The notes beneath the pieces are model-generated. The model worked only from the letters and a program-made list of their open reading frames with translations. It was not told the DNA's origin and did no database searches. From assembly GCF_011045215.1 (NCBI RefSeq), contig NZ_CP049201.1: a DNA stretch of 64,000 bases; one strand, written 5' to 3'. The translations under genes were made by a program, and so were the position numbers. The stretch comes from Escherichia coli. GTDB lineage: Bacteria; Pseudomonadota; Gammaproteobacteria; Enterobacterales; Enterobacteriaceae. This document shows positions 25,381 to 59,249 of the stretch, in pieces. The stretch's first letter is position 1. Every line of letters begins with the position of its first letter.

Positions 25381-26583
25381 ATGGCAGTATTGACGGATAC
25401 GAAAGCAAGACATATCAAACCTGATGACAAACCATTGCCCCATGGGGGAATTACCGGACTGACCCTTCATCCTTCTTCAGTAAAGGGGCGGGGGAAATGG
25501 GTTTTTCGTTATGTAAGTCCGGTGACACAAAAAAGACGTAATGCTGGATTGGGAACTTACCCAGAGGTCAGTATTGCTGAAGCTGCACGTACTGCCCGGA
25601 TAATGCGAGAGCAACTTGCTGCAGGTGATGATCCTCTGGAGATTAAAAAGGCTGAATCTGAGAAAGTCGTTATCCCAACATTTGCCGATGCAGCCAGGCG
25701 TGTACATGCAGAACTGTCTCCTGGATGGGAAAATCCAAAGCATGTAAGGCAGTGGTTATCGACGCTTGAGAATTACGCGTTTCCTCAACTGGGAGCAAAA
25801 ACGCTGGATTCGATTACGGCTGCGGACGTGGCAGAAACATTGCGTCCAGTCTGGTTAACCTTGTCAGAAACGGCAAGCCGGGTTAAACAGCGCATTCATG
25901 TTGTTATGCAGTGGGGATGGGCGCACGGTTTTTGTGTGGCAAATCCTGTTGATGTGGTTGACCATTTGCTTCCTCAGCAGACAAGAGGACGTGATGAACA
26001 CCAACCCGCAATGCCCTGGAGGCAGTTACCGCTTTTTGTGGCGACCAGTGTGTATAGTGATGAACCTTATAATGTTACCCGCGCACTGTTATTAATGGTG
26101 ATACTTACAGCAACTCGCTCGGGCGAAGCCAGGGGAATGCGCTGGGCTGAAATTGATTTTCATAAGCGGGTATGGACTATACCTGCAGAAAGAATGAAAG
26201 CTAGGCTACAGCATCGTGTTCCTTTATCCCGGCAGGCTATTTACATTCTGGAAAATATACGTGGCCTGCATGATGAACTGGTGTTCCCTTCACCCAGAAA
26301 GCAGCAGATCCTTTCCGATATGGTGTTGACAAGTTTTCTGCGTAAAAAGAAAGCCGTCAGTGACATTCCGGGGCGAGTTGCCACGGCACATGGTTTTCGC
26401 TCAACATTCAGGGACTGGTGTAGTGAACAGGGGTATTCGCGGGATCTGGCGGAAAGGGCGCTCGCTCATACGCTGAAAAATAAGGTTGAGGCGGCATATC
26501 ATCGCACTGATCTACTGGAGCAGCGTGTACCGATGATGCAGGCATGGGCGGATTATGTGATGTCTCAAATTGTGAATAAATAA
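25381..26583 (+). CDS. Tyrosine recombinase, P4-type integrase family
   Basis: 400-aa ORF; N-terminal arm-binding-like region and C-terminal catalytic region (AHGFRSTFRDW...LAH...Y); adjacent to att repeat. Confidence 0.85.
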   Translation: MAVLTDTKARHIKPDDKPLPHGGITGLTLHPSSVKGRGKWVFRYVSPVTQKRRNAGLGTYPEVSIAEAARTARIMREQLAAGDDPLEIKKAESEKVVIPTFADAARRVHAELSPGWENPKHVRQWLSTLENYAFPQLGAKTLDSITAADVAETLRPVWLTLSETASRVKQRIHVVMQWGWAHGFCVANPVDVVDHLLPQQTRGRDEHQPAMPWRQLPLFVATSVYSDEPYNVTRALLLMVILTATRSGEARGMRWAEIDFHKRVWTIPAERMKARLQHRVPLSRQAIYILENIRGLHDELVFPSPRKQQILSDMVLTSFLRKKKAVSDIPGRVATAHGFRSTFRDWCSEQGYSRDLAERALAHTLKNKVEAAYHRTDLLEQRVPMMQAWADYVMSQIVNK

Positions 26584-40196: not shown

Positions 40197-40205
40197 GAAA
40201 GTTTC

Positions 40206-40733: not shown

Positions 40734-40748
40734 GTCAGGTTTATCAGA

Positions 40749-43700: not shown

Positions 43701-46700
43701 CTGGATAACCGTGAGGGTGGCCGGCTGGTCAGTGAAGGTGAACTCCGTCTGCATACGGGAGGCCTGCAGAACAGCCACGGACAGATACAGTCTGTGGGCG
43801 ACATTCTGTTCGACAGTGTACGGGGCGTTGTGGACAACGTCTCTGGTCTGATTCGCAGTGGTTCTGCCATTACGCTGAACGCCCTGCAGTTTATCAATCG
43901 CCACACGCAGAATACCGGCCAGGGGCTGGAAGCGCAGACAATACACATCACGACGCAGGACCTTGATAACCAGGAGGGCAGTATTCTGGCAGACAGGGCG
44001 CTTACGGTTATGGCAGACAGGACGCTCAGTAATAATGATGGCGTGCTCTCTTCCGGCGCGACATTGTCTGTCAGTGGCCGTCAGCTGGCGTTTTCGAACC
44101 GTGACGGCGTGGTTAAGGCCGGGCAGTCAGTCTCTGTGGATGTCGGTCAGCTTGGTGGTGACGGGAAACTGCTTTCGCCGGGCGATATAACGCTGAAAAG
44201 TAACACAGCGTTCAGTAACAGTGGTCAGACCATTGCAAACGGAAACCTTACGCTTTCCGTTAATGGCGATGTCTCTAATACCGGCAGCCTGCTGGCAGGC
44301 AGCCGGCTTGACCTGAACAGCATCCGCCTTGAAAACACAGAGAAAGGTGAAATCAGTGCCGGGCAGACCTGGCTTAACGTGACGGACACACTGCTGAACC
44401 GTGGGCTGATTGACGGGAAATATACGCATCTTCAGGCGAACACCCTGACGAATTCCGGTACCGGGCGAATCTACGGCGATGCTGTTGGTGTCAGCGCTGC
44501 CACATTTAATAATCTGGATGAAAATGGCGTGGCGGCGACGCTGGCCGGACGTGAGCGTGTGGACCTGGGGGTACAGACCCTGAATAACCGGACGCACAGC
44601 CTGATTTACAGTGCAGGTGATATGCATATCGGTGGCATGCTGGATGCGAATGGCGCCGCCACGGGGAAAGCCGGTGTACTGAATAATCACAGTGCCACGA
44701 TTGAAGCCGCCGGTTCCCTGACACTGAGTGCCGGGCAAATCAATAACGTCAATGACCATTTCACCACGGAGCGCGTGGTGGTCTCCACGGAAAAGGTGAC
44801 TGAGTATCAGCATCGCGGGTCAGATGTCCGCTGGAATGCAAAAGATGAGGGGGTGTTCATTGATAACAACTCCTCTGATGGACTGCTGAACCTGAACACG
44901 CCGGATGATACCGGACATAACAACGACCGGTTCACAAAATATGAATACACCCGTACCGTGGAGGAAACCCGGGTAAAAGACTCCGACCCGGGGAAAATAC
45001 TGTCCGGTGCCGGCATGACGGTTGTGGCAGACAAACTGCTTAATGACAAGAGCCAGGTGGTTGCAGGTGGTCTGCTGGATATGCAGGCCGGTGATGTGGA
45101 AAACGTCAGTGTCAGCGGAGAGCGCCATGTTACTGATAAAGGGACATCCACATATTATTACCGGATAAAAAGAAAAAATAAAAATGACAGGCAGGGGGAA
45201 AGAATTTCCCCTTACGAGCCGCCCCCCGTCATTCAGACCATCACGCTGAAGCCGGGAGAGCTCACCAGCCACGGACAGGTTCAGGGCAGCCAGGTCACGC
45301 TTTCTCCCCTGAAGCCACAGGGAACGGATGTACAGACAGGACTGACCGGAAATGTGGATGCGACAGTAGCCGTTACTGACCGGATACCGCTTCGCCCGGT
45401 GGTGTCAGCCGGTGAACCGGTCATTCTGTTGCCGGGGCAGCAGTTTGAAGTCAGCGCACCTCAGGGCAGTATCCATGTTGCCGGGCCGGATACCCGTCTG
45501 CCGGACAGCAGCCTGTTTAAAACAAATCCGGCAGTGAATGTGCCATATCTGGTTGAAACGGACCCGCGTTTTACGAACCAGAAGACGTGGCTGGGCAGTG
45601 ATTACATGCAGAAGGCGTTTTCTCAGAACGGGGATAACATGCTCAAACGCCTGGGGGATGGTTTTTACGAACAGCGTCTGATTCGTGAGCAGGTTGTCGC
45701 TCTGACCGGGCAACGGTACCTGGACGGATACAGTAATGATGAAGAGCAGTTTAAGGCGTTAATGGATGCGGGTATTGCATTTGGTAAGCAATACAACCTG
45801 ACACCAGGTGTGGCGCTGACTGCTGAGCAGATGGCGTTACTGACCGGTGATATTGTCTGGCTGGTTAACACCACGGTGACACTGCCGGACGGCAGCACGC
45901 AGACGGTTCAGGTACCTCAGGTGTATGCCCGTGTAAAACCCGGTGATGTGAACAGTGCCGGTGCGCTGATTGCCGGCAGGGACATGGTGATGAAGCTGGA
46001 TGGTGACCTGTTTAACAGCGGTAAACTGGCCGGGAAGCAGGCCGTGCAGCTCAGTGCAGAAAACATTCACAACCAGGCCGGCACCATTCAGGGAGCAAAT
46101 GTCAGCCTGACGGCCCGGACGGATATTAACAGTACCGGCGGGCTGCTGCAGGCCACGGACAGCCTGCTGGCGATGGCCGGACGGGATATCAGTCTGACCA
46201 CCACCACCCGTACGGCACAGCGCGACGCCGGGCAGAACCATTTTGAACGTACCAGTATCGACAGTGTGGCCGGCGTGTATGTGCAGAACGACCAGGGAAG
46301 ACTGGTGCTGCAGGCCGGACGGGATATGAATCTGACGGCGGCAACGGTGGTGAATCAGGGTAAGGACAGCCTGACACAACTCAGTGCCGGCAGGGATATG
46401 ACGCTTTCCACGGTGACCACATCCGCGCAGGACAATATTACCTGGGATAAAAATAATCGTCTGTCGCAGGGCGTCACACAGAATACGGGCAGCACACTTG
46501 CCGGTAACGGTGATGTCACGCTGACCGCCGGACGGGATATGACGTCACAGGCGGCATCGCTGTCAGCTCAGAAAGGCCTGGCCCTGATGGCGGGTCATGA
46601 CGTGACGCTGACCGGTGCACAGAATACCCGCTCGCTGGATGAATACCATAAAGTGACCGGCAACAGCGGGATGTTATCGAAAACCACCACTACCACGCAT

Positions 46701-49700
46701 GATGTCACTGACCGCCGGACCATGACGGGCAGTGAACTGAACGGGGATACGGTCAGTATCGGTGCCGGACATAATCTGAACGTCACGGGCAGCAGTGTGG
46801 CCGGGGATAACCGTGTCTCCCTGGCTGCCGGAAATAACCTGAGTATCGGAACGCTGACAGAAAGCAACCGTGAAACACACCTGAAACAGGAGAAAAAATC
46901 CGGACTGATGAGCTCCGGAGGTGTGGGATTCAGCGTGGGCAGCCAGAGTCTGAAGGTCACGGACACCGCAACAGACACCACGCAGAAAGGCAGCACGGTG
47001 GGGAGTGTTCACGGTGATGTTTCCCTTCAGGCAGGTAACCGGTTGACCGTCAACGGCTCTGACCTGATTGCCGGCAGGGACATGGCACTCAGTGGTAAGG
47101 AGGTCAGCATTACCGCCGCCACTGACCGGCATGTGCAGACACATACGGTGGAGCAGAAAACCTCCGGTCTGACGCTTGCCCTGTCCGGCACAGCGGGCAG
47201 CGCCCTGAACACGACGGTGGAGACCGTACAGGCGGCGAAATCTGCCGGAAACAGCCGGCTTGAAGCCCTGCAGGGGGTGAAGGCCGCGCTCTCGGGGGCT
47301 CAGGCCGTGCAGGCCGGACGACTGGCAGAAGCACAGGGCAACCAGAAAGAGAATAACAATACCGTGGGTATCAGCCTCTCTTACGGCAGCCAGTCTTCGA
47401 AATCAGAACAGCAGTCAGAGCAGACGGTGGCGAAGGGCAGTACACTGACCGCAGGTAATAACCTCAGTATTCAGGCCACCGGCTCCGGCGTGAAGGGCGT
47501 GGATGGTGACCTGACGATACAGGGCGGTCAGATAAAGGCCGGGAACAACGTTCTGCTGCAGGCAAACCGTGACGTGAATCTGGTATCAGCAGAAAACACG
47601 TCAAAGCTGGAAGGAAAGAACACATCCAGTGGTGGCAGCGTGGGTGTCGGTATCGGTGTGGGGCCCGGAGGGCCTGGTTTCAGTCTGTCAGCCAGCGCAA
47701 ACCAGGGTAAGGGCAGTGAAAAAGGCAACGGTACCACCCATACAGAAACCACGGTGGATGCGGGAAACCGGCTGACCATTATCAGCGGGCGGGACACCAC
47801 GCTTACCGGCGCGCAGGCTGGCGGTGAAACGGTGAAAGTGGATGCCGGTCGTCATCTGACACTGACCAGTGAGCAGGACAGTGACCGTTATGACAGTAAG
47901 CAGCAGAATGCCAGCGCCGGAGGCAGCTTCACTTTCGGGTCCATGAGCGGTTCGGCGAGTGTGAACCTCAGCCGGGATAAAATGCACAGTAACTACGACA
48001 GTGTACAGGAGCAGACGGGGATTTTTGCCGGCAGGGGCGGGTTTGATGTCACCACCGGACAGCATACGCAACTGAACGGTGCGGTGATTGCGTCCACGGC
48101 AACGGCAGATAAAAACAGGCTGGATACCGGCACACTGGGCTTCAGTGACACTGAAAACCGGGCTGACTTTAAAACGGAACATCAGAGTGCAGGGCTCAGT
48201 ACCGGTGGCAGTGTTGCCGGAAATTTCCTGGGGAACATGGCAAACAATCTGCTGGTCGGTGCAAATCATGAAGGCCATGCGGACAGTACCACGCAGTCGG
48301 CTGTGTCTGCCGGGAATATCACTATCCGGGATACACAGAGCCAGAAACAGGATGTGGCAGACCTGAACCGTGACGTTGCGCATGCAAACCAGACGCTGTC
48401 CCCCATCTTTGACAGGGAAAAAGAGCAGCAGCGGTTGCAGCAGGCGCAACTCATTGGTGAGATTGGTAACCAGGTGGCAGATATTGCCAGAACGGAAGGA
48501 CAGATAGCCGGTGAGAAAGCGAAGCGGGACCCGGCAGCACTGAATCAGGCCCGCGCAGAGCTTGAGGCAGCAGGAAAACCGTACACGGAACAGGATGTGG
48601 CACAGCGGGCCTACAATAACGGTATGGCAGCCTCCGGTTTTGGAACGGGAGGCAAATACCAGCAGGCGATACAGGCCGCAACGGCAGCGGTACAGGGACT
48701 GGCCGGCGGTAATCTGAGTGCAGCCCTGGCAGGTGGTGCAGCGCCGTATATTGCTGAAATTATCAAACAGACCACCCCGGACGGTGCGGGGCGTGTGGCA
48801 GCTCATGCAGTAGTGAATGCCGCCCTGTCTCTGGCACAGGGTAAGAATGCCCTTGCCGGTGCTGCAGGTGCAGCCACCGGCGAGGTGGTGGGAATGATAG
48901 CCACACAGATATACGATAAATCGGTGAGTGAACTGAGTGAGACAGAGAAACAGACGGTCTCCACGCTGGCAACGGTTGCTGCCGGCCTGGCCGGTGGTCT
49001 GGTGGGAGACTCGGGGGCTTCAGCGGTAGCCGGCGCACAGTCAGGTAAGACGACTGTTGAGAATAATTATCTTAGCGTGTCTGAAAAGACAGAGCTTGAG
49101 ATAGCAAAACAGAAGCTTAAAAACAGTAAAGATCCGGCAGAGCGTGAAAAGGCACAGCAGAAATATGATGCATTGCTTGAAAAAGATATCAGCAGTGATA
49201 AGGCAGTAATCGCTGCGTGCAGTAACGGACAGGCAGCCAGCGCAGCTTGTGCCGGTGAAAGACTGAAGGTTATTGCAGCTAAAGGAGGTTATGAAACCGG
49301 ACACTACAATAACCAAGTCAGCGATATGTATCCGGATGCTTACGGGCAGATAGTAAACCTGCTGAATATCACCAGTGTTGATGCACAAAATCAACAACAG
49401 GTGAAGGATGCGATGGTGAACTATGCCATGGTGCAGTTTGGGGTCGATAGGGCGACGGCACAGGCATACGTTGAAACTTATGATGGAATGAAAGTTGTAG
49501 CTGCTTCGATGGCACCAGTAATAGGTGCTGCGGCGGCCAGTAAGATAGAAGTTCTGGCTGGTAAACAACGCTTGTCTAATAGTTTCGAGGTTAGCTCACT
49601 TCCAGATGCAAATGGGAAAAATCACATCACGGCTGTAAAAGGTGATGCTAAAATACCTGTCGATAAGATTGAACTATATATGCGTGGTAAAGCTTCTGGT

Positions 49701-50069
49701 GACCTTGATTCTTTGCAAGCAGAATATAATTCTTTAAAAGATGCAAGGATTAGCAGCCAAAAAGAATTTGCAAAAGATCCAAACAATGCTAAAAGGATGG
49801 AAGTATTAGAAAAACAAATCCATAATATTGAGCGTTCTCAAGATATGGCTCGTGTATTAGAACAAGCAGGTATAGTGAATACTGCCAGTAATAACAGCAT
49901 GATAATGGATAAGTTATTGGACTCAGCTCAGGGGGCTACGTCTGCAAATAGAAAAACATCTGTTGTTGTATCAGGGCCTAACGGTAACGTAAGGATTTAT
50001 GCTACATGGACAATATTACCTGATGGCACGAAAAGACTTTCAACTGTTAATACGGGGACATTCAAATGA
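40749..50069 (+). CDS. cdiA: Contact-dependent inhibition exoprotein CdiA (3106 aa) with VENN-delimited C-terminal toxin
   Basis: Extended signal peptide MNKNCYRIIFNKARGMLMVVADIA, TPS domain (ANPAGISCDGCGF), long FHA-type repeat tracts, VENN at 49056-49067, AT-rich C-terminal 333 aa. Confidence 0.9.
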   Translation: MNKNCYRIIFNKARGMLMVVADIARSGRAGASPSSRTGYPRRQRICRVTSLAFSLWLASGMVHSVSAAGIVADHGAPGHQQPTITQTASGIPQVNIQTPSAGGVSHNTYSQFDVSHQGVILNNSHKNVQTQLGGMVAGNPWLAKGEARIILNEVNSRNPSQLNGFVEVAGKKAQVVIANPAGISCDGCGFINANRATLTTGQPQMKNGSLTGFSVERGEIQITGKGMDASRTDYTDIIARSVKINAGIWAQDLKVTTGRNNVDIAHGQTEKKAADASSQPQVALDVSSLGGMYAGKIRLVGTETGVGVRNAGHIGAQAGAVTLTADGRIENSGSISAKTDVHLVTTRELHNSGSVYAGQDTQIQSDGVFTHTGSVASRRNTRIQTARLTGGERSLLAAGVKDDGRLAAAGNLTVSTTGELAAHGQVLSGGDMQLKGQGLDLSNSRIQGQHTELDAGSGNLFTQNAQLSAGTLSARTAGQFSNNDGTINADTLQISAQSLSNHRGKLIQTGTGDFSLNLPGGVDNREGLLAANGAVRLDALSLDNRRGKVQAAQSGSLQVRTTGAVDNQQGSLIASRDILINTQALNNDNGLISAAAGTGRIKTQQAVSNTEGRMESAGRLDISAGSLNNHQGTVVSDGLSVTLDGALDNTSGRLLSQKTLSVSGSELVSDDGLIQSGSDMTLDVQDGVLSNRNTKTRGGISSAGTLTVRAGMLNNQQGFMAGQKDMTLNAGTLDNRQGVLGSQASLQISSGTLMNQKGALKAGTDMLLSGGDVSNQEGTLAAGGDLNAHLNVLENQQGTVVSNGNSRLDVTRSDNQGGRLVAQQSLTLSSTDISNDAGGLIQSGATLNLRADTLSNRNSGDRGGVISQGPMTLNAGTLDSTAGVLLSGDALSLTAGVVNNTSGQVVANGQIVATGLPGRNSLALNNQSGLIQGKGISINSAGRTLDNRGGTLNSLQELTVSTGAMDNRGGTVGAKTTADLSTTSLDNREGGRLVSEGELRLHTGGLQNSHGQIQSVGDILFDSVRGVVDNVSGLIRSGSAITLNALQFINRHTQNTGQGLEAQTIHITTQDLDNQEGSILADRALTVMADRTLSNNDGVLSSGATLSVSGRQLAFSNRDGVVKAGQSVSVDVGQLGGDGKLLSPGDITLKSNTAFSNSGQTIANGNLTLSVNGDVSNTGSLLAGSRLDLNSIRLENTEKGEISAGQTWLNVTDTLLNRGLIDGKYTHLQANTLTNSGTGRIYGDAVGVSAATFNNLDENGVAATLAGRERVDLGVQTLNNRTHSLIYSAGDMHIGGMLDANGAATGKAGVLNNHSATIEAAGSLTLSAGQINNVNDHFTTERVVVSTEKVTEYQHRGSDVRWNAKDEGVFIDNNSSDGLLNLNTPDDTGHNNDRFTKYEYTRTVEETRVKDSDPGKILSGAGMTVVADKLLNDKSQVVAGGLLDMQAGDVENVSVSGERHVTDKGTSTYYYRIKRKNKNDRQGERISPYEPPPVIQTITLKPGELTSHGQVQGSQVTLSPLKPQGTDVQTGLTGNVDATVAVTDRIPLRPVVSAGEPVILLPGQQFEVSAPQGSIHVAGPDTRLPDSSLFKTNPAVNVPYLVETDPRFTNQKTWLGSDYMQKAFSQNGDNMLKRLGDGFYEQRLIREQVVALTGQRYLDGYSNDEEQFKALMDAGIAFGKQYNLTPGVALTAEQMALLTGDIVWLVNTTVTLPDGSTQTVQVPQVYARVKPGDVNSAGALIAGRDMVMKLDGDLFNSGKLAGKQAVQLSAENIHNQAGTIQGANVSLTARTDINSTGGLLQATDSLLAMAGRDISLTTTTRTAQRDAGQNHFERTSIDSVAGVYVQNDQGRLVLQAGRDMNLTAATVVNQGKDSLTQLSAGRDMTLSTVTTSAQDNITWDKNNRLSQGVTQNTGSTLAGNGDVTLTAGRDMTSQAASLSAQKGLALMAGHDVTLTGAQNTRSLDEYHKVTGNSGMLSKTTTTTHDVTDRRTMTGSELNGDTVSIGAGHNLNVTGSSVAGDNRVSLAAGNNLSIGTLTESNRETHLKQEKKSGLMSSGGVGFSVGSQSLKVTDTATDTTQKGSTVGSVHGDVSLQAGNRLTVNGSDLIAGRDMALSGKEVSITAATDRHVQTHTVEQKTSGLTLALSGTAGSALNTTVETVQAAKSAGNSRLEALQGVKAALSGAQAVQAGRLAEAQGNQKENNNTVGISLSYGSQSSKSEQQSEQTVAKGSTLTAGNNLSIQATGSGVKGVDGDLTIQGGQIKAGNNVLLQANRDVNLVSAENTSKLEGKNTSSGGSVGVGIGVGPGGPGFSLSASANQGKGSEKGNGTTHTETTVDAGNRLTIISGRDTTLTGAQAGGETVKVDAGRHLTLTSEQDSDRYDSKQQNASAGGSFTFGSMSGSASVNLSRDKMHSNYDSVQEQTGIFAGRGGFDVTTGQHTQLNGAVIASTATADKNRLDTGTLGFSDTENRADFKTEHQSAGLSTGGSVAGNFLGNMANNLLVGANHEGHADSTTQSAVSAGNITIRDTQSQKQDVADLNRDVAHANQTLSPIFDREKEQQRLQQAQLIGEIGNQVADIARTEGQIAGEKAKRDPAALNQARAELEAAGKPYTEQDVAQRAYNNGMAASGFGTGGKYQQAIQAATAAVQGLAGGNLSAALAGGAAPYIAEIIKQTTPDGAGRVAAHAVVNAALSLAQGKNALAGAAGAATGEVVGMIATQIYDKSVSELSETEKQTVSTLATVAAGLAGGLVGDSGASAVAGAQSGKTTVENNYLSVSEKTELEIAKQKLKNSKDPAEREKAQQKYDALLEKDISSDKAVIAACSNGQAASAACAGERLKVIAAKGGYETGHYNNQVSDMYPDAYGQIVNLLNITSVDAQNQQQVKDAMVNYAMVQFGVDRATAQAYVETYDGMKVVAASMAPVIGAAAASKIEVLAGKQRLSNSFEVSSLPDANGKNHITAVKGDAKIPVDKIELYMRGKASGDLDSLQAEYNSLKDARISSQKEFAKDPNNAKRMEVLEKQIHNIERSQDMARVLEQAGIVNTASNNSMIMDKLLDSAQGATSANRKTSVVVSGPNGNVRIYATWTILPDGTKRLSTVNTGTFK

Positions 50070-50551
50070 TAAATGTGAATAGTACCGCAAAGGATATTGA
50101 AGGTTTAGAAAGTTACCTAGCTAATGGCTATGTAGAGGCTGACTCTTTTAACGACCCAGAGGATGATGCGTTAGAGTGTCTCAGTAATTTATTAGTTAAA
50201 GATTCGAGGGGGGGGCTGTCATTTTGTAAAAAAATACTTAATTCAAATAACATTGATGGTGTTTTTATTAAAGGTTCGGCGCTGAATTTCTTATTATTGT
50301 CAGAACAGTGGTCTTACGCCTTTGAGTATTTGACAAGCAATGCGGATAATATAACTCTTGCAGAGCTTGAAAAGGCGCTTTTCTATTTTTACTGTGCAAA
50401 AAATGAGACAGATCCTTATCCTGTACCAGAGGGTTTATTCAAAAAACTGATGAAAAGATATGAAGAACTGAAAAATGACCCTGATGCAAAATTTTATCAT
50501 CTTCATGAAACGTACAATGATTTTTCAAAAGCTTATCCTCTGAATAATTAG
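50066..50551 (+). CDS. cdiI: Putative CdiI immunity protein for the main CdiA-CT
   Basis: 161-aa AT-rich ORF; start overlaps cdiA stop (ATGA at 50066-50069). Confidence 0.6.
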   Translation: MINVNSTAKDIEGLESYLANGYVEADSFNDPEDDALECLSNLLVKDSRGGLSFCKKILNSNNIDGVFIKGSALNFLLLSEQWSYAFEYLTSNADNITLAELEKALFYFYCAKNETDPYPVPEGLFKKLMKRYEELKNDPDAKFYHLHETYNDFSKAYPLNN

Positions 50552-50780
50552 AAGCTATCGCCATGGAATATTGTCTATGACTGCATGGAAGGATGATGGT
50601 CATAGTGTGTTGGGAGCTATTCTTTAACAGATTTGGGGGAAATGGTGTAACTGGCTGAAAGGGCGCGTCAGGGCAAAAAGTTGTTGCGCCGGAATTATAG
50701 CAGGACAAAGCGGTTTTAACGCGCTGAAAGCACAGGGAAAACTTGTTTTATCACAGCAACCTGCGGCGGAAAGAGTTGTT

Positions 50781-51716
50781 GTTGAGAATAACTTTTTGAC
50801 CGCGGATCAGATCGATAGCTTTGCGGCAAAAGCAAAAGGGTGTGAAGTACGTGGCGACTGCAAACAGATTGTAAAGGAGATGGAGGAGCTCAGCCTTAAG
50901 CAACAGCAGGAAATGATAGCTGTCTGCGCAACAAACCCTGCGGCCTGCAAAGAGAAATTCGGCGATATACCAGCTAAAGGAATGCTTGTACGAGAAGCGA
51001 TAGATCGTGTGTTAGGTGCAGATGTACCGTCTGCAATGAAGAATGATATGTCTTCGTTGTTAGCTCAGCAGATCGAAGCGGAAGGTGTTGTTACCAGTAC
51101 TGAATTTGCCTGTCAGCTACAAAATCGTTACGGTATAGACAAGCAACAGGCTGAAATCCTTGCCGTCGCAGCATTGGGAGCAGTGACAGGTGGGATGGGG
51201 AAATCAGGTACTTCAACGGTAACTAAAAACATCGTTGTGGTTAATTCAGGTAAGAAAGGGGCCTGGAATCAAGCAATGAATAAGCCGGAACCGAATACCG
51301 TTTATAAGGTCGATGGAAATAAAACATACCAGACTGATGCATTGGGAAGAACTAGTTCAGTTGAGGGTATACTAGTTGCTTCGAAAAGCGACAGAAACAC
51401 TTATCAGCAATGCAAGGCCGGGAAATGTGGTAGCTCTGGTGATGAAGGTGGTCATTTAATTGCCAGTATTTTTAATGGTCCTGGCGAAAAACTCAATCTT
51501 GTTCCTATGGATGGCAACCTGAATAAAGGTGTATGGAAACAGATGGAAAACACATGGGCTAATGCTTTGAAAGATGGCAAACAAGTTAATGTTAAAATAG
51601 AACCTGTTTACACTGGGGAGAATAAGCGTCCTGAAAGCTTTAGTGTAACATACTCTATTGATGGAGGCCGTCCTGTTATCAAAGACATCAGCAACACACC
51701 TGGAGGGGTAAAATGA
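50781..51716 (+). CDS. Orphan cdiA-CT module 1 (VENN-prefixed toxin domain, activity unknown)
   Basis: VVENN at 50781-50792 without upstream CdiA body; about 310 aa follow, with a His-containing segment GDEGGHLIASIFNG. Confidence 0.6.
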   Translation, partial: VENNFLTADQIDSFAAKAKGCEVRGDCKQIVKEMEELSLKQQQEMIAVCATNPAACKEKFGDIPAKGMLVREAIDRVLGADVPSAMKNDMSSLLAQQIEAEGVVTSTEFACQLQNRYGIDKQQAEILAVAALGAVTGGMGKSGTSTVTKNIVVVNSGKKGAWNQAMNKPEPNTVYKVDGNKTYQTDALGRTSSVEGILVASKSDRNTYQQCKAGKCGSSGDEGGHLIASIFNGPGEKLNLVPMDGNLNKGVWKQMENTWANALKDGKQVNVKIEPVYTGENKRPESFSVTYSIDGGRPVIKDISNTPGGVK

Positions 51717-52051
51717 ACGAATTAGATGATCTGCATAATAAAATAGGTCAGTTATTAGTGGATGCCGGTCCTGCTAATGCGATGAAGATCATTGCTCGTG
51801 CTAAATTATCACTAGATGGTGAGTCATGTGAGTATGAGTATGATTATCTTGATCAAGAGGGAGATGAAGATTGGTTCGTTCCTGATAAGTTAGCCAGTCA
51901 CGATCTTAGGCTACTGTTAGTTAAAATGAGGGATTTTTACATCCGAAATAATATGACTAACGGGAAACCAGCATGGATAGGTTGTGAAATAATCGTTGAT
52001 ATACCAGAAGAAAAAATTAGCATAAACTTTCAATATGATGATGAACTATGA
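51713..52051 (+). CDS. Orphan cdiI module 1 (putative immunity protein)
   Basis: 112-aa acidic ORF; start overlaps the orphan toxin stop (ATGA). Confidence 0.55.
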   Translation: MNELDDLHNKIGQLLVDAGPANAMKIIARAKLSLDGESCEYEYDYLDQEGDEDWFVPDKLASHDLRLLLVKMRDFYIRNNMTNGKPAWIGCEIIVDIPEEKISINFQYDDEL

Positions 52052-52215
52052 TCTAGGCCCCGGGATCTCCACAATGCCCATAGCGTGTACGGTGGAACAA
52101 AGCGTGTCGGGGAAAAAATCGGCGGGCAGCGAAACGCAACAGAATAAAGGTTGTAACAAACTGAAAGAAAAGGGGAAAATCGTCTCCTTCACCACAATGC
52201 GCGTCAGAGAGAGTT

Positions 52216-52710
52216 GTTATTGAGAATAACTTCTTAAGCTCTAAAGAAGCCCGACAATTCGATGAAGAACTGGTGGAATGCAAGGCTTCTGGTGGAGACT
52301 GTAAATCTGTTATTCAGAAATATCTGGATATCAGCAACCAAAACAGTAAGGAACTGGCTGAAGCCTGTACTGGCGGTGGTGTTGCATGCGTAACTTGGGA
52401 GGAATTAATTCAGGGAAGGACTAATGTTGCTAATGTTGCTAATGATCCACATTCCGGACAATTCAGACTGGATGAAAAACTTAAGGATCCCGATGCGGTC
52501 GCTATTGTGAATTATCTCAACGGCTCAGACCTCAAGTTCCTTAAAGATAATATTACAGAGGGGGATCGCTTACTGTCTGTTATCAGCGATCCAACTTCAT
52601 GGCCTGTTGCTGTAATGGGAGGAAAGGCCTTTATCACCAATGCAGTCAATAATACTAAAGAACAGCTTATAGCTGTGGGGGTTGGTGTTGGATTAGGGGC
52701 CGGTATTTAG
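52216..52710 (+). CDS. Orphan cdiA-CT module 2, N-terminal part (VIENN-prefixed)
   Basis: VIENN at 52216-52230, then Cys-containing region ECKASGGDCKSVIQKY similar to module 1; ends at TAG 52708-52710. Confidence 0.5.
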   Translation, partial: VIENNFLSSKEARQFDEELVECKASGGDCKSVIQKYLDISNQNSKELAEACTGGGVACVTWEELIQGRTNVANVANDPHSGQFRLDEKLKDPDAVAIVNYLNGSDLKFLKDNITEGDRLLSVISDPTSWPVAVMGGKAFITNAVNNTKEQLIAVGVGVGLGAGI

Positions 52711-52751
52711 CAACAGGCAGCGTTGCCCTGTTACCGGGGAGTGCCCAGGCT

Positions 52752-53231
52752 ATGTGGTTACTTGGTGCCGGGACAAATGCCGGGATGCAGTATGCAGATA
52801 GTGGTGAAATAAACCCGGTCAACTCAGTGGCAGCAGGCTGGATAAATGTGATAACCATGGGGCAGGGCTGGAAAGGGACAATAGCCTGGAATGCGGCAGG
52901 TGGAGCATTAACCAACGCCATAAACGGAGATGATCCTCTTACTGGGGCGATTACAAATGGAGCGGGGGCCGGGTTTGGATATGGGGTTGGCAATTATGTG
53001 GTCAAGCCTGCTGCAAATACAATCGGTAAATGGATAACCGGTGGCTGGAATCCTAAATTCGATCCGACTCTACTAAAATATACTGAAGTTAAAGGGCAGT
53101 TAGGTCTATCTAAAGAAATGGTACCGAGTAAGATCCCTGGTGCTGTGGGTAATGCGGGTGGTAGTTTATCATCTGAGTTTGGAAGCTCCATTATCCAGAA
53201 AAAGAAAGATGCAATGGAGGCTGGGAAATGA
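52752..53231 (+). CDS. Glycine-zipper-rich protein, probable C-terminal toxin part of orphan module 2 (different frame)
   Basis: 159-aa ORF with Gly-rich hydrophobic stretch (GAITNGAGAGFGYGVGNYVV); stop overlaps the next small gene. Confidence 0.45.
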   Translation: MWLLGAGTNAGMQYADSGEINPVNSVAAGWINVITMGQGWKGTIAWNAAGGALTNAINGDDPLTGAITNGAGAGFGYGVGNYVVKPAANTIGKWITGGWNPKFDPTLLKYTEVKGQLGLSKEMVPSKIPGAVGNAGGSLSSEFGSSIIQKKKDAMEAGK

Positions 53232-53726: not shown

Positions 53727-54284
53727 ATGAAAAAACTGTCAGTTCTTTCAGCCATCATATTATCAGTGGCAAGCGGTTCCGTGCTGGCTGACAACCATTC
53801 GTTTTCTGTCGGTTATGCACAGAGTAAAATTCAGAACTTCAAGAATATTAGAGGGGTAAACCTGCAGTACAGGTATGAATGGGACTCCCCGGTCAGTATT
53901 ATGGGCAGTTTCTCCTGGATGAAAGGGGATGGTAATCAGGAATATCATTCATATGGCGATTCAATTAAAAACCAGGTTGATGCAAAATATTATTCCTTAC
54001 TGACCGGCCCCGTATGGCGCATTAACGATTATATGTCACTGTATGCGGCTGGCGGCGTGGCGCATGTTAAAGCTGATGGTAAAACAGCATGGACAAACGT
54101 TGATGGTTATTTCGCCAGAGAAAATATTTCGAAAAAATCCACATCTTTTGCTTATGCTGCCGGGGTAATGATCAATCCGACAAGTAATATTACAATTAAT
54201 GCCGGATATGAAGGAACCAGAGCAAAACTTGGCGATAATTATTCCATTAATGGATTCAATATTGGCGTGGGTTATCGCTTTTAA
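53727..54284 (+). CDS. Ail/Lom/OmpX/PagC-family outer-membrane beta-barrel protein
   Basis: 185-aa ORF with signal peptide, alternating aromatic/hydrophilic strands, terminal ...GVGYRF. Confidence 0.75.
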   Translation: MKKLSVLSAIILSVASGSVLADNHSFSVGYAQSKIQNFKNIRGVNLQYRYEWDSPVSIMGSFSWMKGDGNQEYHSYGDSIKNQVDAKYYSLLTGPVWRINDYMSLYAAGGVAHVKADGKTAWTNVDGYFARENISKKSTSFAYAAGVMINPTSNITINAGYEGTRAKLGDNYSINGFNIGVGYRF

Positions 54285-54852
54285 TAAAGTAGAATGAACA
54301 TAATAGCGTTCATATCTGTTTTTTTACTTAACCAAGCGGTACATATATGTACCGCTTGTCTGTAATAAATCAATACCGCCTGTAACGGTACGAATGACTA
54401 TTGCCATGAACGCAATCATGTTTCTGTTGTTGCCGAACATCGTTCTGTGCAGAGGCTTTTGGTGTGCCTTCCATCAGCCAGCGTAATGATTCTCAGGCAA
54501 TTTTGTATCGTTTCGGTTAACTCATACTGATGCGTCGGTGGCGGGGCATCCGAACGATCGCAGTCTGACAATGGTCGATTTATTTTGCTTGCGCAGGGGC
54601 GAGCGCCAGGCTGGTATCGGAGGCGGGTTCTGAAGGACTGAGTCGGGTAATTGCGTCAGGTCGCGAAGTACTGACACGGGTACTGGTGGCAGGTGATGAA
54701 GTGCAGCCCCGGGAATGGCTCCGGGCTGACTCAGGTTCTGATTCGCTGTCAGCCCGCGTGGTGGCTGGCCTGGCTCATTTCCTGTCGTCAGGCGTTCAAC
54801 TCCCGACTGCAGATTATGGCACGCTGCAAGAACACCTGACGACAGGTATCAC

Positions 54853-56355
54853 TCACCCGGAGAAGGTAAATCCCTCAAGGGGCAGCAACTCTGCCAGTCG
54901 CTCCTCTGGCCATTCCGGCAGACGCGCCAGGACGTCTGTCAGCCAGGCATGTGGCTCCAGACCATTACGTTTTGCCGTTTCCAGAAGGCTCATTATCTGT
55001 GCCGCGCGGTTTCCGGCCATCAGTGAACCGGCGAACAACCAGGCCTTTCGTCCCATAACGACCGGGCGGATAGCACGCTCGCAGATATTGTTGTCCAGGG
55101 GCACGGCTCCGTCACCCAGGAAGCAGCTCAGTTCATCGCGCCGGTTCAGGATATAATTAATCGCTTTGTTTAGTGGTCCGTCGGGCGGACAGCACGGCTC
55201 CTGCTCTTCAAGCCAGGCAAACAGGTCATTCACTATCGGCCGGGAATACCGTTGTCGCCATTGCCGTATTTTTTCCACAGGACGTTCACGGATGAACTTC
55301 TCAATGCGATAAAGACCCGCGATTTTTCTCAGCGCCATGGCTGCACGGGGCTCCCTGCTGGCCTTATACAGACTGGCGAAGCCGCGTCTTGCGTGGCTCC
55401 AGCAACAGGCAGATGTAATACCGGGGTCATTATCCGCCAGAGATTTGTACACGCTGTATCCGTCACTCACCAGCGTGCCACCACGCCAGCCCTGCAGCCA
55501 GGCCTCAGGATATCTGAGGGCCCGTCCGGTCTGCGAGTCAAAACAGACGACCGGCGGGCCGCTTCTTTCTCCGCTGACGTAAGCCCACAGCCAGCCGGAG
55601 CAGGATTTACCGCCTTTCCGGGTATCAAGGAGCCTCAGGGACGTTTCATCTGCATGAATAACATCCCGTGTCAGAAGCTCGTGGCGTAACAATTTTGCCA
55701 GCGGGGCCAGTGCAGCGCCAGCAACACCGACCATATCCGCCATTGTACTGACGGGGAGCTCCACACCCATTCGGGAGAAAATGTGCTGCTGGCGATACAG
55801 GGGCAGATGGTCGGTATATTTGCTGATGACAACCTGTGCGATGACCGATGGCTCAACAGCACTTTTCGGAAGGATATGTGCCGGCATTTTTCCGCTGAAC
55901 ACTTTCTCACAGCAGGGACAGCTGTACTGCGGGCGGATATAGCGGTGGACCACAACCTGTGCGGGGATATATTCCAGCTTCTCGCTGACTTCATCGCGAA
56001 TGAAGTGCAGGGGGGCATCACAGTCAGGACAACGTTCCTCAGCTGGCGGGATAACCTTTTCAGCACGGGGAAGATGTGAAGGCAAGGGCTTACGAACAGG
56101 ACGTGTTGTTTTTTCTTCGTCCCCGGTCTGAGGAAGCAGTTTGTCCAGACGCGCCGAGATTTCTGCGATATCCGCGTCAACATCCTCTTCGAACAGGGAA
56201 CGCTGCATCCCGGCCAGCGATTCGCATTTTTTACCAAAACGCTGCTGGCGTGCGAGCTTCATCTGCTCTTCCAGGATGCGGATACGGTTCTGAAGTTCTG
56301 CAATATTCCGGTCTTTTTCCAGCACCATATTTGCAAGGTTCTGACTCTCAGCCAT
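54853..56355 (-). CDS. IS66-family transposase TnpC
   Basis: 500-aa ORF; N-terminal leucine-zipper-like coiled coil, Cys-rich zinc-finger region (CPDCDAPL...CPCCE), DDE-type core. Confidence 0.8.
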   Translation of the reverse strand: MAESQNLANMVLEKDRNIAELQNRIRILEEQMKLARQQRFGKKCESLAGMQRSLFEEDVDADIAEISARLDKLLPQTGDEEKTTRPVRKPLPSHLPRAEKVIPPAEERCPDCDAPLHFIRDEVSEKLEYIPAQVVVHRYIRPQYSCPCCEKVFSGKMPAHILPKSAVEPSVIAQVVISKYTDHLPLYRQQHIFSRMGVELPVSTMADMVGVAGAALAPLAKLLRHELLTRDVIHADETSLRLLDTRKGGKSCSGWLWAYVSGERSGPPVVCFDSQTGRALRYPEAWLQGWRGGTLVSDGYSVYKSLADNDPGITSACCWSHARRGFASLYKASREPRAAMALRKIAGLYRIEKFIRERPVEKIRQWRQRYSRPIVNDLFAWLEEQEPCCPPDGPLNKAINYILNRRDELSCFLGDGAVPLDNNICERAIRPVVMGRKAWLFAGSLMAGNRAAQIMSLLETAKRNGLEPHAWLTDVLARLPEWPEERLAELLPLEGFTFSG

Positions 56356-56474
56356 GGCTTTTGCACCATGGCAATTGCCAGAGCGCGAAGCTGTTCAGGG
56401 TCACTGGTGGTACTGAGAAGCGAGATATCCATGCGGTGGATTATATGACATCACGCATGGATATTCATTATATT

Positions 56475-56876
56475 TCATTGAGTTATTGCGTTGCTCTGAG
56501 CATCTTCGGGTTCTTCCTGGTATACCCATTTTGCCAGGTCATGCCCTTTCACCTGTTGCCAGTCAACCCCACAGACCAGCCAGTGAAACTCATCCTGTGT
56601 GAGATGCCATGTGGCATCACCTTTCCGGGGCCAGCGGAAGCTTCCCCGGTGCAGTCGTCGGGTACACAGCCATACGCCATGTTTGTCCCACCGGAGAACT
56701 TTTATGCGGGAGCGGACTTTATTGGTGAAGACAAAAGCAGCACCGTCATGCCATGCAGCGTTAAGTTCGTTCTGGACGTACTGTGTCAGTGTGTCGATAC
56801 CCCGGCGCATATCGACGGGTTTTACGACCAGGAATACGTTATCAGGCGTCAGCATGGCGAAGAGCCCGGAAAACAT
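56475..56876 (-). CDS. IS66-family accessory protein TnpB (Orf2)
   Basis: 133-aa ORF (MLTPDNVFLVVKPVDMRRG...) between tnpA and tnpC. Confidence 0.7.
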   Translation of the reverse strand: MFSGLFAMLTPDNVFLVVKPVDMRRGIDTLTQYVQNELNAAWHDGAAFVFTNKVRSRIKVLRWDKHGVWLCTRRLHRGSFRWPRKGDATWHLTQDEFHWLVCGVDWQQVKGHDLAKWVYQEEPEDAQSNAITQ

Positions 56877-57171
56877 CGGTTAACTGAGAAGGCTGGCAGC
56901 ACATCCGGATACCTCCGGGAAGGAAAAGTGTGACAGGCTCATCCGACAATGGTCTGCCATCAGCCATACCGGGAGCGCCAGACACTGAAACTGGAATAAT
57001 TTCAGGTGCTCTGGCTCGTTTTTCGGCTTTTGCAACATCCTGCGGCCACTGGCGCAGGGATTTAAACGGAATGTCGTAAAGTTCACAGTACTGTTCACGG
57101 GTAAGGCCGCTTGCGCGCCATGCGGCAACGTGATGTTTTTTCTGATCAAGCGTCCATCGTATCCTGGGCAT
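56842..57171 (-). CDS. IS66-family accessory protein TnpA (Orf1)
   Basis: 109-aa ORF with HTH-like N-terminus, overlapping the tnpB start. Confidence 0.65.
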   Translation of the reverse strand: MPRIRWTLDQKKHHVAAWRASGLTREQYCELYDIPFKSLRQWPQDVAKAEKRARAPEIIPVSVSGAPGMADGRPLSDEPVTLFLPGGIRMCCQPSQLTDVFRALRHADA

Positions 57172-57288
57172 TGTTTACTCTCCACAGAAGGAAGTTATAC
57201 GAATACCGGAATGTTAATGAACAGAATATTTCTGTGAAGATAAGATCCCCGAAACGATACAATCATTAAATATGAACTGGAGGTACAA

Positions 57289-57771
57289 ATGAATAAATAC
57301 TTAATTATTTTATTTTTTATTGCTGACACTTCTAACGCTTCAGAAGCTATATCAAATAAGTACACAATAGATTCAGACAGTCAGTTAATATTATCGAATG
57401 GAAATATTAAGGCTGTTGGCAATGTACACGCTGTAAGCGGGGACATGACTATTGATGCAGATGAAGCTATTTATCATCGTGAAACCCCTGATAACACCTA
57501 TATAACTGCCACAGGGGATCCAATAAAATACAATGGGATAACAGAAGATGGCAAGCCGTTTTCAGGAAACTCGAAAAAGCTTAAATATACTCCCAAAACA
57601 GGAGAGGTGATCCTGACAGACGAAGCTTTTGTCCAACAGAGTGGAAATTCTCTGTCGGCCGAAGTAATAACATATAACACCATCACAAGAAAAATGACAG
57701 CCTCAGCAACTCCCGGTAAAAGAGTAAGGAGTGTGATTTATCCTGACAATATATCCCAGAATGAAAAATAA
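57289..57771 (+). CDS. Secreted LptA/OstA-N-like domain protein
   Basis: Signal peptide MNKYLIILFFIADTSNASEA, then repetitive beta-strand pattern resembling the LptA fold; AT-rich. Confidence 0.45.
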   Translation: MNKYLIILFFIADTSNASEAISNKYTIDSDSQLILSNGNIKAVGNVHAVSGDMTIDADEAIYHRETPDNTYITATGDPIKYNGITEDGKPFSGNSKKLKYTPKTGEVILTDEAFVQQSGNSLSAEVITYNTITRKMTASATPGKRVRSVIYPDNISQNEK

Positions 57772-58052
57772 TTACGCTTGGTTAATAATATGCTGAATCT
57801 GCCAAAACCTTTTATCCTGACAACTTACTGCCAAGATAAAAAGTCAGACGTCATACAGCAGAGTTATTAACAGGCAGCATACATCACCCCGACTGGAGAG
57901 TAAGCTCGCACAGTTCAAGTCATTGACGAAAAAATGTTTCACTACTGACGATACAGTGGCAGGTATTCGCAGTATTTTCCCGTTACAGAGCCGGCGTTGC
58001 CGCGCTCTGTCAGGCAGAACGGGACTGGCGCTTACTTGTTATCTGAACATTC

Positions 58053-58699
58053 ATGTGTACTATCTTTATGTTACTGATGATGCAACAACATAAATTCGTT
58101 TTTCTTCTCACAGCATTGTTAAGCACCTTCTGCCTCAATTTGTTTCCTGTGGCAGAAACAGGAAATAGCATTACTGTATTGTTACAGATTGCTGCTGATG
58201 TCAATTTATTGTATCGCCGCTGGCAGATGACAGGCCTGAGCATACTGCGGATAATTTTATTACTGCGCAGTGGTTATACAACTCAGCCCTCACAGTACTA
58301 TTATATTACAGTGCTTATCTGTTATTCTCTATTCTTCAGTCAGTTATTGTCTTCCGGCAGGTTGTTTTCTCCTCTGGCATTAATACTGAAACTGTATGCG
58401 CAGCCCTGTGCGGATTTTTACTCATCGGATATATGGGATTCTTTCTATTTGCAACACTGGAGAATCATACGTCGGGCTCTTTTCGTGGTCTTCCCAAAGA
58501 AGGGTTATTGATGATGAAGGGATTATTTTATTACTCTGTTATCAGTATACTGACTGTAGGATATGGTGACATAGTTGCCGTCATCTGGCCAATCCGTAAT
58601 GCAACCATTCTGGTTATATTACTTGACTGCGTCTATTCTCTGGTATTTATTGCACGTATTGTTGGTAGTTTTTCCGCACAAAAAAACGAACAAACGTAA
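58053..58699 (+). pseudogene. Potassium-channel-like gene with TVGYGD selectivity-filter signature, apparently frameshifted
   Basis: 58433-58699 frame encodes ...YYSVISILTVGYGDIVAVIWP... plus a following TM helix; upstream TM helices are in the same frame but without a start codon, while the ATG ORF at 58053 is in another frame. Confidence 0.45.
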
Positions 58700-58844: not shown

Positions 58845-59249
58845 TCACCAGCCCCCTGTGCCAGGTAATTGTTTTTCCACACGTATACTGGCTCGTTCTT
58901 TTTCCAGCTGACAAATCTGTCGATTTAACGCATTACGCCGGGATATATCTGTCACTCCTCCCAGCTGACTTCGCAATTCATCAATTTTCATCTGCAAAAC
59001 CAGTTTTCTCTGTTGCACTGACTGCATACGCTCAACGGATAATATGACTGAGCGACTGACGCTATCTCCCTGCTTCCTGAGTACATCCGCATGAGTATCC
59101 ATATTAGCTGAAAGCGTCTTCAGAGCCGCTTTCCCACTTTCTGATTTCAGTTTACCAATTTCCATACCAGGCTCCGCTGCAACACCAGCACCAGTCACCA
59201 GAATTACCACTATCGTAAACAAAGTCGGTAATATTACGTTCCTCTTCAC
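58845..59249 (-). CDS. Hypothetical secreted coiled-coil protein (134 aa)
   Basis: N-terminal signal-like hydrophobic segment, then heptad-like region. Confidence 0.4.
   Translation of the reverse strand: MKRNVILPTLFTIVVILVTGAGVAAEPGMEIGKLKSESGKAALKTLSANMDTHADVLRKQGDSVSRSVILSVERMQSVQQRKLVLQMKIDELRSQLGGVTDISRRNALNRQICQLEKERASIRVEKQLPGTGGW

Follow-up and report, generated by a model that had tools for sequence, protein, structure and literature searches.

An LptA-like gene on an Escherichia coli genomic island belongs to a rare orphan clade carried by plasmids, islands and a Tn3-type transposon

What is a second gene for the lipopolysaccharide (LPS) transport protein LptA doing among the insertion sequences of an E. 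coli genomic island? The question is raised by an open reading frame (ORF) at positions 57289..57771 of a 64,000-nucleotide (nt) stretch of E. coli DNA (assembly GCF_011045215.1, contig NZ_CP049201.1), the whole of which we call the window. An earlier note, made from the sequence alone, had described this ORF as AT-rich island cargo of 160 amino acids (aa) with a signal peptide and an LptA/OstA-like strand pattern, lying between an IS66 element and a channel-like gene. It had also suggested that the ORF is a stray LptA-like paralog that could alter envelope or LPS handling, and had named a profile search and a structure prediction as ways to check this. We find that it is a member of a distinct clade which occurs solely as an additional copy, mobile by horizontal transfer. 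We refer to it as the orphan LptA clade because no member has an Lpt neighbour, while the outgroups sit in lpt operons. The LptA family itself is known; what appears to be new is an orphan mobile paralog whose path can be traced from plasmid envelope modules to the passenger position of a Tn3-type transposon.

The ORF is intact, with an ATG start and 160 codons followed by a stop, and its GC content is 37.1% compared with 49.0% for the whole window, in agreement with the size and AT-richness noted earlier. A ribosome-binding site, GGAGG (57279-57283), lies 5 nt ahead of the start. The N-terminus of the protein, MNKYLIILFFIADTSNA followed by SE, opens with a basic n-region, continues with a hydrophobic core of 9 residues and carries small residues at -3 and -1, and the NA-SE cleavage motif is kept throughout the family consensus in our alignment. 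We read the signal peptide from this n/h/c sequence pattern and not from a dedicated predictor. The structural model described below is in keeping with it, since residues 1-20 are disordered (predicted local distance difference test score, pLDDT, below 50) and the first strand begins at residue 25. The N-terminus has no Cys and hence no lipobox, and there is no transmembrane anchor, so that export as a soluble periplasmic protein is predicted; the signal peptide claimed by the earlier note is thus upheld as one of Sec type. A 6-codon upstream ORF overlapping the start codon (ATGAACTGGAGGTACAAATGA) was dismissed because it is not kept across copies of the gene.

57289..57771, plus strand: orphan LptA-like gene (ORF; Pfam LptD_N; TIGR03002; AlphaFold2/Foldseek; dN/dS against 7 homologs)
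57289..57339, plus strand: predicted Sec signal peptide, residues 1-17, cleavage after SNA (n/h/c pattern and family alignment)

Profile, sequence and structure comparisons agree on the fold, and for this reason we regard its assignment as solid. The protein matched the Pfam LptD_N profile (PF03968) over profile positions 2-111 of 113 with E=2.8e-18 (66.6 bits against a cutoff of 20.4) and the NCBIfam LptA model TIGR03002 with 97.7 bits (cutoff 71.7). A phmmer search of the Protein Data Bank returned E. coli LptA (2R19) at E=5.6e-14. An AlphaFold2 model built from a 21-sequence alignment had a mean pLDDT of 85.6, and its top Foldseek matches were ten chains of E. coli LptA (2R1A/2R19; target-normalised template modelling (TM) score 0.76-0.88, root-mean-square deviation 1.8-3.0 Å, or roughly 2 Å). 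These were followed by LptH, thanatin-bound LptA, the N-domain of LptD and LptC. The LptA/OstA-like fold proposed from pattern recognition is therefore borne out by both of the checks that the earlier note had named.

Does the ORF then simply encode the housekeeping LptA of the cell? The annotation would say so. RefSeq, through the Prokaryotic Genome Annotation Pipeline (PGAP), names every clade copy 'lipopolysaccharide transport periplasmic protein LptA', with an LPS-transport Gene Ontology term, because TIGR03002 is treated as an equivalog model and the score lies above its cutoff. As a consequence carrier genomes look as if they had two lptA genes, and the label conceals the difference between the orphan clade and the housekeeping gene. 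Against this, the protein is only 28% identical to E. coli LptA by alignment, and it scores 67.1 bits with the enterobacterial LptA equivalog model NF008143, far under the cutoff of 234. Whereas lptA is essential and universal in E. coli, this gene is carried by just 3 of 5,426 complete E. coli genomes. No lptC, lptB or any other Lpt neighbour was found in ~20 distinct contexts of clade members, whose loci are an island, plasmids and a transposon, while the next-nearest outgroups (P0055 and P0059, 33-34% identity, the two nearest whose loci could be placed) are both within kdsC-lptC-lptA-lptB operons. Score, identity, context and rarity being all contrary, we rejected the housekeeping identity, to which we allow practically no chance. 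The suggestion of a stray paralog on a mobile island thus stands, with the low NF008143 score on the one hand and an integrase island next to clpA on the other. With regard to a defence or phage role, there was no PADLOC hit and the sole PHROG match was weak and to an unannotated PHROG.

The clade is both rare and widely scattered. The three E. coli carriers (coverage of at least 80%) are C5 and 52F4, at 99%, and 401651, at 87%; relatives were found on 12 of 72,556 plasmids, and a pattern scan of ~100,000 species-representative genomes gave 4 loci. Our context census of the clade therefore relied on 30 loci obtained by routes other than the species-genome scan. In an exhaustive HMMER search of 1.8 billion representatives the clade appeared as a small group at 70, 61, 53, 51, 44 and 35% identity, beyond which ordinary LptAs followed at 25-34%. 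Hosts span at least 10 genera, and many of them are plant- or insect-associated Enterobacterales (Pantoea, Erwinia, Rosenbergiella, Lonsdalea, Cedecea, Serratia, Providencia). Eight copies, from E. coli, Enterobacter, Pantoea, Cedecea and Erwinia, share 82-99.6% DNA identity and retain all 160 codons with no indels, and their pairwise ratios of nonsynonymous to synonymous substitution rates (dN/dS) are 0.10-0.33. Since all eight are intact at such ratios, the ORF is no chance reading frame. The clade is under purifying selection and, judged from these sequences, the gene is functional as a family.

In a neighbour-joining tree rooted on E. coli LptA, the transposon-borne copies are nested deep in a young crown clade (62-99% identity), and four successively more basal branches occur in other settings, the copies in fimbrial and LPS clusters being basal. 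Across the clade the settings include an integrative and conjugative element (ICE), the flank of a type VI secretion system (T6SS) cluster, chromosomal sites, plasmids, islands and the transposon. We noted that the most divergent crown member (62%; L013/L014 1-7483) lies 214 nt 3' of a T6SS VgrG-DUF2169-pentapeptide-DUF3540-PAAR-like cluster and shows no Tn3 traces; the position downstream of T6SS VgrG clusters is often held by immunity or effector genes. Our literature searches found no relevant publication on mobile, plasmid or fimbrial LptA paralogs or on a Tn3-lptA element. The Brucella 'lptA' literature was set aside, as it concerns an unrelated lipid A-remodelling gene of the same name.

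How the crown clade came to move was indicated by DNA comparison. Homology between contexts is limited to the ORF, 33 nt upstream and ~50-80 nt downstream, and nothing more. On a Cedecea neteri plasmid (L004 4241-8649) the gene lies within a complete 4,409-bp transposon, in the order inverted repeat, tnpA (1,001 aa) divergent from tnpR (181 aa), lptA-like gene, strong hairpin (-22.4 kcal/mol, z -6.6) and right inverted repeat. The inverted repeats are 39 nt long and 97% complementary; their first 38 nt, GGGGTCTGACGCTCAGTGGAACGAAAACTCACGTTAAG, agree with what we take to be the 38-bp Tn3 inverted repeat, and TnpR is 91% identical to what we take to be the Tn3 resolvase sequence. In the C. neteri type strain (L022) tnpA, tnpR and the lptA-like gene are found on a contig whose length, 4,409 bp, is exactly that of the transposon, and Pantoea ananatis (L003 6243-10652) has a second complete copy of 4,410 bp, 89% identical to the Cedecea element. 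Over the transposon backbone (positions 1-3740 plus the right inverted repeat) the identity to blaTEM transposons is ~88.6%, and no fewer than 1,811 plasmids cover at least 80% of the query. Homology to the blaTEM transposons ends just short of the end of tnpR and restarts at the right inverted repeat, and by this break the orphan lptA fills the passenger slot of bla. The sequences thus indicate that the crown clade was captured later, as the sole passenger of a Tn1/2/3-like transposon, and then scattered. A Tn1/2/3-like transposon carrying an lptA-like gene in place of blaTEM is apparently undescribed. There was no target-site duplication around the L004 transposon; the flanks of L003, TATTC on the left and T-TATTC on the right with a 1-nt offset, are only suggestive of one.

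The passenger setting between tnpR/res and the terminal inverted repeat is complete in L004 and L003 and partial in L002, L005, L008 and L027, and the copies can be arranged by how much of the transposon they have kept:

Enterobacter, Erwinia pEPIR37, the Lonsdalea chromosome and Serratia pWVU-009: partial tnpR and/or right inverted repeat left
Salmonella IncFII plasmids: a 28-60-nt tnpR tail alone left
The window copy, those of E. coli C5 and of the ICE in E. coli 401651, and several more: leader and hairpin flank alone left

We looked for Tn3 remnants beside the window copy and rejected their presence, as the window contains no 38-bp Tn3 inverted repeat (up to 3 mismatches) and, by tblastn, no tnpA or tnpR.

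The older contexts of the gene are envelope modules of two kinds. The two deepest branches, on a metagenomic contig (L021) and on the chromosome of Serratia marcescens (L020), are both in chaperone-usher fimbrial clusters, which have in common orthologous genes for GerE/LuxR, YuaE and a long FkpA-like peptidyl-prolyl isomerase; L020 adds an MrpH_C adhesin. The same GerE, YuaE, FkpA-like and fimbrial set recurs around the Salmonella IncFII copies, and across the basal loci the cluster orthologs GerE, YuaE, FkpA-like and MrpH_C are at 35-75% identity. The FkpA-like isomerases of L012, L016, L020 and L021 have 457-531 aa, with an N-terminal extension of ~200-300 aa, and MrpH_C is present in all of these loci except L021. 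We found no published description of a fimbrial cluster of this GerE-YuaE-FkpA-like type.

The second kind of module is found in the branch at 47-51% identity, which occurs on seven large IncF plasmids carried by cattle and sheep E. coli. There, as in L026 (plasmid CP057604.1, 10927-14465), a Shf-like polysaccharide deacetylase gene is followed by a 723-aa ORF and then by the lptA-like gene, which is a 47%-identical relative in L026 and has a GTG start 4 nt past the stop of the 723-aa ORF. The latter is a family 4 glycosyltransferase (GT4) fused to a DUF535 domain. Over 90% of its length it shows 49% identity to CapU and VirK, whose genes are adjacent on Shigella virulence plasmids; its GT4 half is ~54% identical to a GT4 that a single E. 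coli plasmid record labels as Ecf2, the LPS N-acetylglucosamine transferase. The PLSDB annotation of this ORF covers the DUF535 part only. A Shigella plasmid has deacetylase-capU-virK-lpxM in the equivalent position, and operons of the shf-capU-virK type are concerned with outer-membrane and LPS components (PMC5775216, PMC12562796). From the matching operon order, the LptA paralog occupies the position of the LpxM paralog in the cattle plasmids. We consider the L026 operon the strongest contextual evidence that orphan LptA may act in LPS biology. The Salmonella IncFII loci have a deacetylase and a GT4 gene upstream of the lptA-like gene, with DUF535 absent, and no operon of the shf-capU-virK type is present around the window copy. 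A search for a PhoP box 5' of the L026 operon gave two near-matches only, ~10 kb away and at chance level, and the L026-type gene had no match in RefSeq complete E. coli genomes.

What the sequences show is the fold and the export signal, the orphan status of the clade, the purifying selection on it, its genetic contexts and its capture by a transposon. On these grounds we tentatively propose, at a little under an even chance, that orphan LptA is an accessory subunit that joins the Lpt bridge of its host. As the clade never travels with lptC or lptB, such a protein must use the Lpt machine of the host. Its solo movement across at least 10 genera under selection likewise calls for a partner that is present in every host, which the Lpt machine fits. 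The secreted, soluble, full-length LptA-fold protein would most likely dock on this machine by beta-strand augmentation, pairing its N-terminal edge with LptC (or LptA) and its C-terminal edge with the N-domain of LptD (or LptA). It would thereby become part of the periplasmic LPS bridge, in place of a regular subunit or in addition to it. In the plasmid-borne envelope modules it may have been a private copy of an LPS-pathway component made together with surface remodelling. Its history would then run from these modules to the passenger position of a Tn3-type transposon and on to the island remnant in the window.

Conservation along the protein is consistent with docking at both ends. The fraction of the family identical to E. 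coli LptA has a mean of 0.27 and peaks at E. coli positions Ec37-46 (0.44) and Ec150-164 (0.42-0.47). These two segments are the N- and C-terminal edge strands, through which LptA makes the LptC-LptA, LptA-LptA and LptA-LptD contacts (PMC7237710, PMC6235536). The edges reached 0.44 compared with 0.34 in canonical LptAs matched for mid-region divergence, a difference with a nominal p~1e-8 between sequences that are phylogenetically dependent; we therefore take the more E. coli-like edge strands as suggestive. Several observations weigh against a role in the bridge. The edge identity of basal members is 0.35-0.39, near the control mean, and identity to E. coli LptA at the edges is in any case just ~44%. 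Of what we take to be the five LPS-crosslinking positions of E. coli LptA (T32, I36, F95, Y114 and L116), four differ (T32 to I, I36 to Y, F95 to Y, L116 to P) and Y114 alone is retained, which keeps rival explanations alive. The clade is very rare, so any benefit is a niche one, and its repeated occurrence beside fimbrial genes might speak for a function outside LPS. Lastly, in the window itself the upstream region of the gene has been replaced by an IS66 element that points away from it, and a promoter scan found no sigma-70 consensus promoter on the plus strand. The features around the gene are these:

53727..54284, plus strand: Ail/Lom-family outer-membrane beta-barrel gene (Pfam Ail_Lom E=3.5e-23), the neighbour if IS66 is discounted
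54546..57255, minus strand: IS66-family element, limits taken from other copies of the insertion sequence (tnpA 56842-57171, tnpB 56475-56876, tnpC 54853-56355)
57256..57288, plus strand: conserved 33-nt leader common to transposon-borne copies, with TACAAT (57258-57263) and GGAGG (57279-57283)
57772..57847, plus strand: conserved 3' flank with decayed hairpin (57807-57844); homology to transposon copies reaches 57817-57847
58068..58690, plus strand: ion-channel gene with a TVGYGD filter, a frameshifted pseudogene (tblastn with the 207-aa ICE ortholog; Pfam Ion_trans_2)

Two other readings of the protein itself were considered. It might be a modulator or antagonist that binds one end of the bridge (the C-edge of LptC or the N-edge of LptD) and passes no LPS on, capping bridges and so tuning LPS flux or outer-membrane composition during fimbria or adhesin production. 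Edge-strand conservation is compatible with binding without transport, four of the five crosslinking positions are altered, and its loci are shared with surface-structure clusters. Conservation extends to both edges, however, and 110 of the 113 LptD_N profile positions are matched by the hydrophobic jellyroll core. It would also be strange for a transposon maintained in several genera to carry, as its only passenger, a cap that blocks an essential pathway and inhibits growth. We think this reading unlikely. It might instead be a periplasmic jellyroll with no part in LPS transport, carrying other hydrophobic cargo or acting as a chaperone for fimbrial subunits or for the adjoining Ail/Lom-type barrels. 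This reading draws on the basal members, which lie inside chaperone-usher clusters with orthologous GerE, YuaE, FkpA-like and MrpH_C genes, and on Ail/Lom genes, which are adjacent in three arrangements, namely in the window, in the Salmonella IncFII plasmids and in L019. A cluster-specific chaperone would be expected to decay outside its cluster, however, and the gene is intact under purifying selection in the transposon, the ICE, the T6SS flank and chromosomal sites; moreover, the one clearly operonic context is an LPS-remodelling operon. As for the Ail/Lom gene of the window, its identity to the others is just 33-37%, DNA homology does not extend past the lptA-like ORF, and the IS66 junction between the two genes is rearranged without a target duplication. 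For these reasons we treat the adjacency as secondary, and a functional Ail/Lom-lptA pair in the window is weakened. A role outside LPS transport strikes us as improbable.

A further possibility bears on this strain and not on the identity of the protein: that the window copy is a silent relic, intact only through recent rearrangement and making no contribution to phenotype. The site between IS66 and a channel-like gene is as the earlier note had it, but the frameshift of the channel went unnoticed there, residues 1-~60 being in one frame (58068-~58250) and residues 64-203 in another (58256-58675). The same lptA-like to channel order is seen in the ICE of E. coli 401651, where the channel is intact (207 aa). 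Homology to every other copy of the lptA-like gene starts at 57256, directly after the end of IS66 at 57255. The element points away from the gene and stands where the tnpR side of the ancestral transposon was, so that everything upstream of -33 has been replaced and the -35 region consists of insertion sequence with at most 3 of 6 consensus matches. The 8-mers flanking IS66 differ (gtggcggg and gatacaat), and hence there is no target duplication and the junction arose from rearrangement and not from simple insertion. At the 3' end the hairpin has decayed to -6.3 kcal/mol (z -2.5), as against -22.4 kcal/mol and z -6.6 in the intact transposon, and the Tn3 right inverted repeat after it is missing. 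Among E. coli genomes only C5 and 52F4 are near-identical here, and both have the same junction (52F4 matching a 751-nt query across it at 99%); the window and C5 differ at ~2 nucleotides, too few to judge by. On the other hand the ORF, the ribosome-binding site and the TACAAT -10 element are intact, the consensus promoter scan is crude, and insertion sequence ends often provide -35 elements. We see a silent relic as quite possible, though less likely than not; the window copy is in any case a stranded remnant whose expression is doubtful. The proposal of an accessory bridge subunit concerns the clade, and our interest lies with the orphan family and not with the window locus.

A perfect 14-nt inverted repeat, TTGTATCGTTTCGG and CCGAAACGATACAA, was observed at 54503-54525 and 57240-57262, spanning the IS66 end and 7 nt of the leader. 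It implies a second IS66-like terminus, with the same 7-nt flank inverted, ~40 nt to the left of the element, and points to inversion or recombination mediated by the insertion sequence, or to target preference. In the E. coli ICE (L006 7756-8013) a different IS66-family element lies ~9 nt upstream of the lptA-like start in the opposite orientation to that of the window; the insertion sequence genes there read toward the lptA-like gene and could drive it. A DsbA-family gene follows the intact channel in this ICE.

LPS export depends on LptA, an essential link present in a single copy, and thanatin-derived antibiotics now in development are directed at it. If orphan LptA does join the bridge, it would offer a natural system for testing the interchangeability of Lpt bridge subunits and a pre-existing mobile route around LptA-directed drugs. 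For Lpt research the existence of such a clade comes as a surprise. Thanatin kills by attaching to the N-terminal (first) strand of LptA, and resistance arises at Q62 or D31, a resistant lptA allele raising the minimum inhibitory concentration when placed in a sensitive strain (PMC6235536). Species whose LptA is less than 70% identical to that of E. coli are largely insensitive (PMC10208570). In the orphan clade the Q62 position is Ser in 95% of members and the D31, D33, Q34, E84 and D119 positions are uncharged, while the docking-strand residues E39 (as D), S40 and D41 are kept; a change in 6 of 6 thanatin-contact residues is not significant at 28% identity (~0.73^6 = 0.15). Orphan LptA could conceivably be a transposable target-bypass in the bla slot of a Tn3 relative, i.e. 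a bridge subunit that LptA-binding peptides (insect thanatins and derived leads) cannot block, and the many plant- or insect-associated hosts would fit this, but we consider it decidedly unlikely.

The island that carries the gene begins next to clpA. The core clpS-clpA sequence ends near 25220 and is followed by an integrase gene, in line with the earlier description of the ORF as island cargo:

25381..26583, plus strand: P4-type tyrosine integrase, island boundary by clpA (Pfam Phage_integrase, Phage_int_M, Arm-DNA-bind_3)

A query across this boundary was matched in 5,425 of 5,426 E. coli genomes, 228 of which cover at least 80% of it; among the matches listed, genomes without the integrase stop matching at query position 3221 (window ~25220). 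The island is rich in IS66, IS21 and IS4. No intact tRNA was found at the junction by ARAGORN or Rfam, many E. coli genomes annotate a tRNA-Ser over the homologous stretch, and the intact tRNA probably lies beyond the window, where the island ends on its other side. Between clpA and the integrase we noted two CRISPR-DR4 repeats (24837-64 and 24897-924) and an RtT-like element (25028-25163, minus strand). A system resembling two-partner secretion and contact-dependent inhibition occupies 38457-53231 of the island, with a ShlB/FhaC-type transporter (38457-40196), a 3,106-aa ORF (40749-50069) that is probably the 'hemagglutinin repeat-containing protein' of C5, and small ORFs downstream; the C5 genes after that protein are annotated as polymorphic toxin type 25 and DUF596. 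At 58845-59249 on the minus strand lies a 134-aa ORF whose N-terminus is hydrophobic and for which Pfam gave no match; it is present at 99% in E. coli C5 and annotated there as a shorter hypothetical protein.

How, then, does orphan LptA compare with known systems? Like E. coli LptA (YhbN; 2R19/2R1A), it has a beta-jellyroll over the whole mature protein, a Sec signal, a soluble form with no lipobox and a similar core length, and the N- and C-edge strands shared with that protein are its best-conserved parts. It differs in its 28% identity, a signal peptide of 17 and not 27 aa, a shorter C-terminal tail, uncharged replacements at Q62, D31, D33, E84 and D119, and in being accessory, rare and mobile outside the lptC-lptA-lptB operon. 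LptH of Pseudomonas aeruginosa (4UU4) is likewise a divergent LptA fold (Foldseek E=4.9e-9, query-normalised TM score 0.70). It can replace E. coli LptA despite low identity, which would show that low identity does not preclude bridge function. In its own host LptH is the essential housekeeping LptA (PMC7204523), whereas the orphan protein is an extra copy beside a resident LptA. MsbB2/LpxM2, encoded in the Shigella pINV operon shf-rfbU(capU)-virK-msbB2, related to pO157 ecf, is similarly a plasmid-borne second copy of a chromosomal LPS-pathway gene, and the L026 lptA-like gene has the same operon position after deacetylase, glycosyltransferase and VirK (PMC5775216, PMC12562796); MsbB2, however, is a lipid A acyltransferase of the cytoplasmic face while the orphan has a periplasmic transport fold, and the window copy lies outside such an operon. 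With Tn1/Tn2/Tn3 carrying blaTEM, the Cedecea and Pantoea elements share the left inverted repeat-tnpA-res-tnpR backbone and right inverted repeat at ~88.6% identity, with the lptA-like gene in the bla position, but the passenger is not a known resistance gene and the window keeps no inverted repeat, tnpA or tnpR. SrgA is a DsbA paralog in the pef-srg-rck region of Salmonella pSLT, located by fimbriae and an Ail/Lom-family gene. It is a private plasmid copy of a periplasmic biogenesis factor, and so parallels the FkpA-like and LptA-like genes of the Salmonella IncFII, Serratia and L021 clusters; its fold and substrate are different, and the analogy is one of organisation only.

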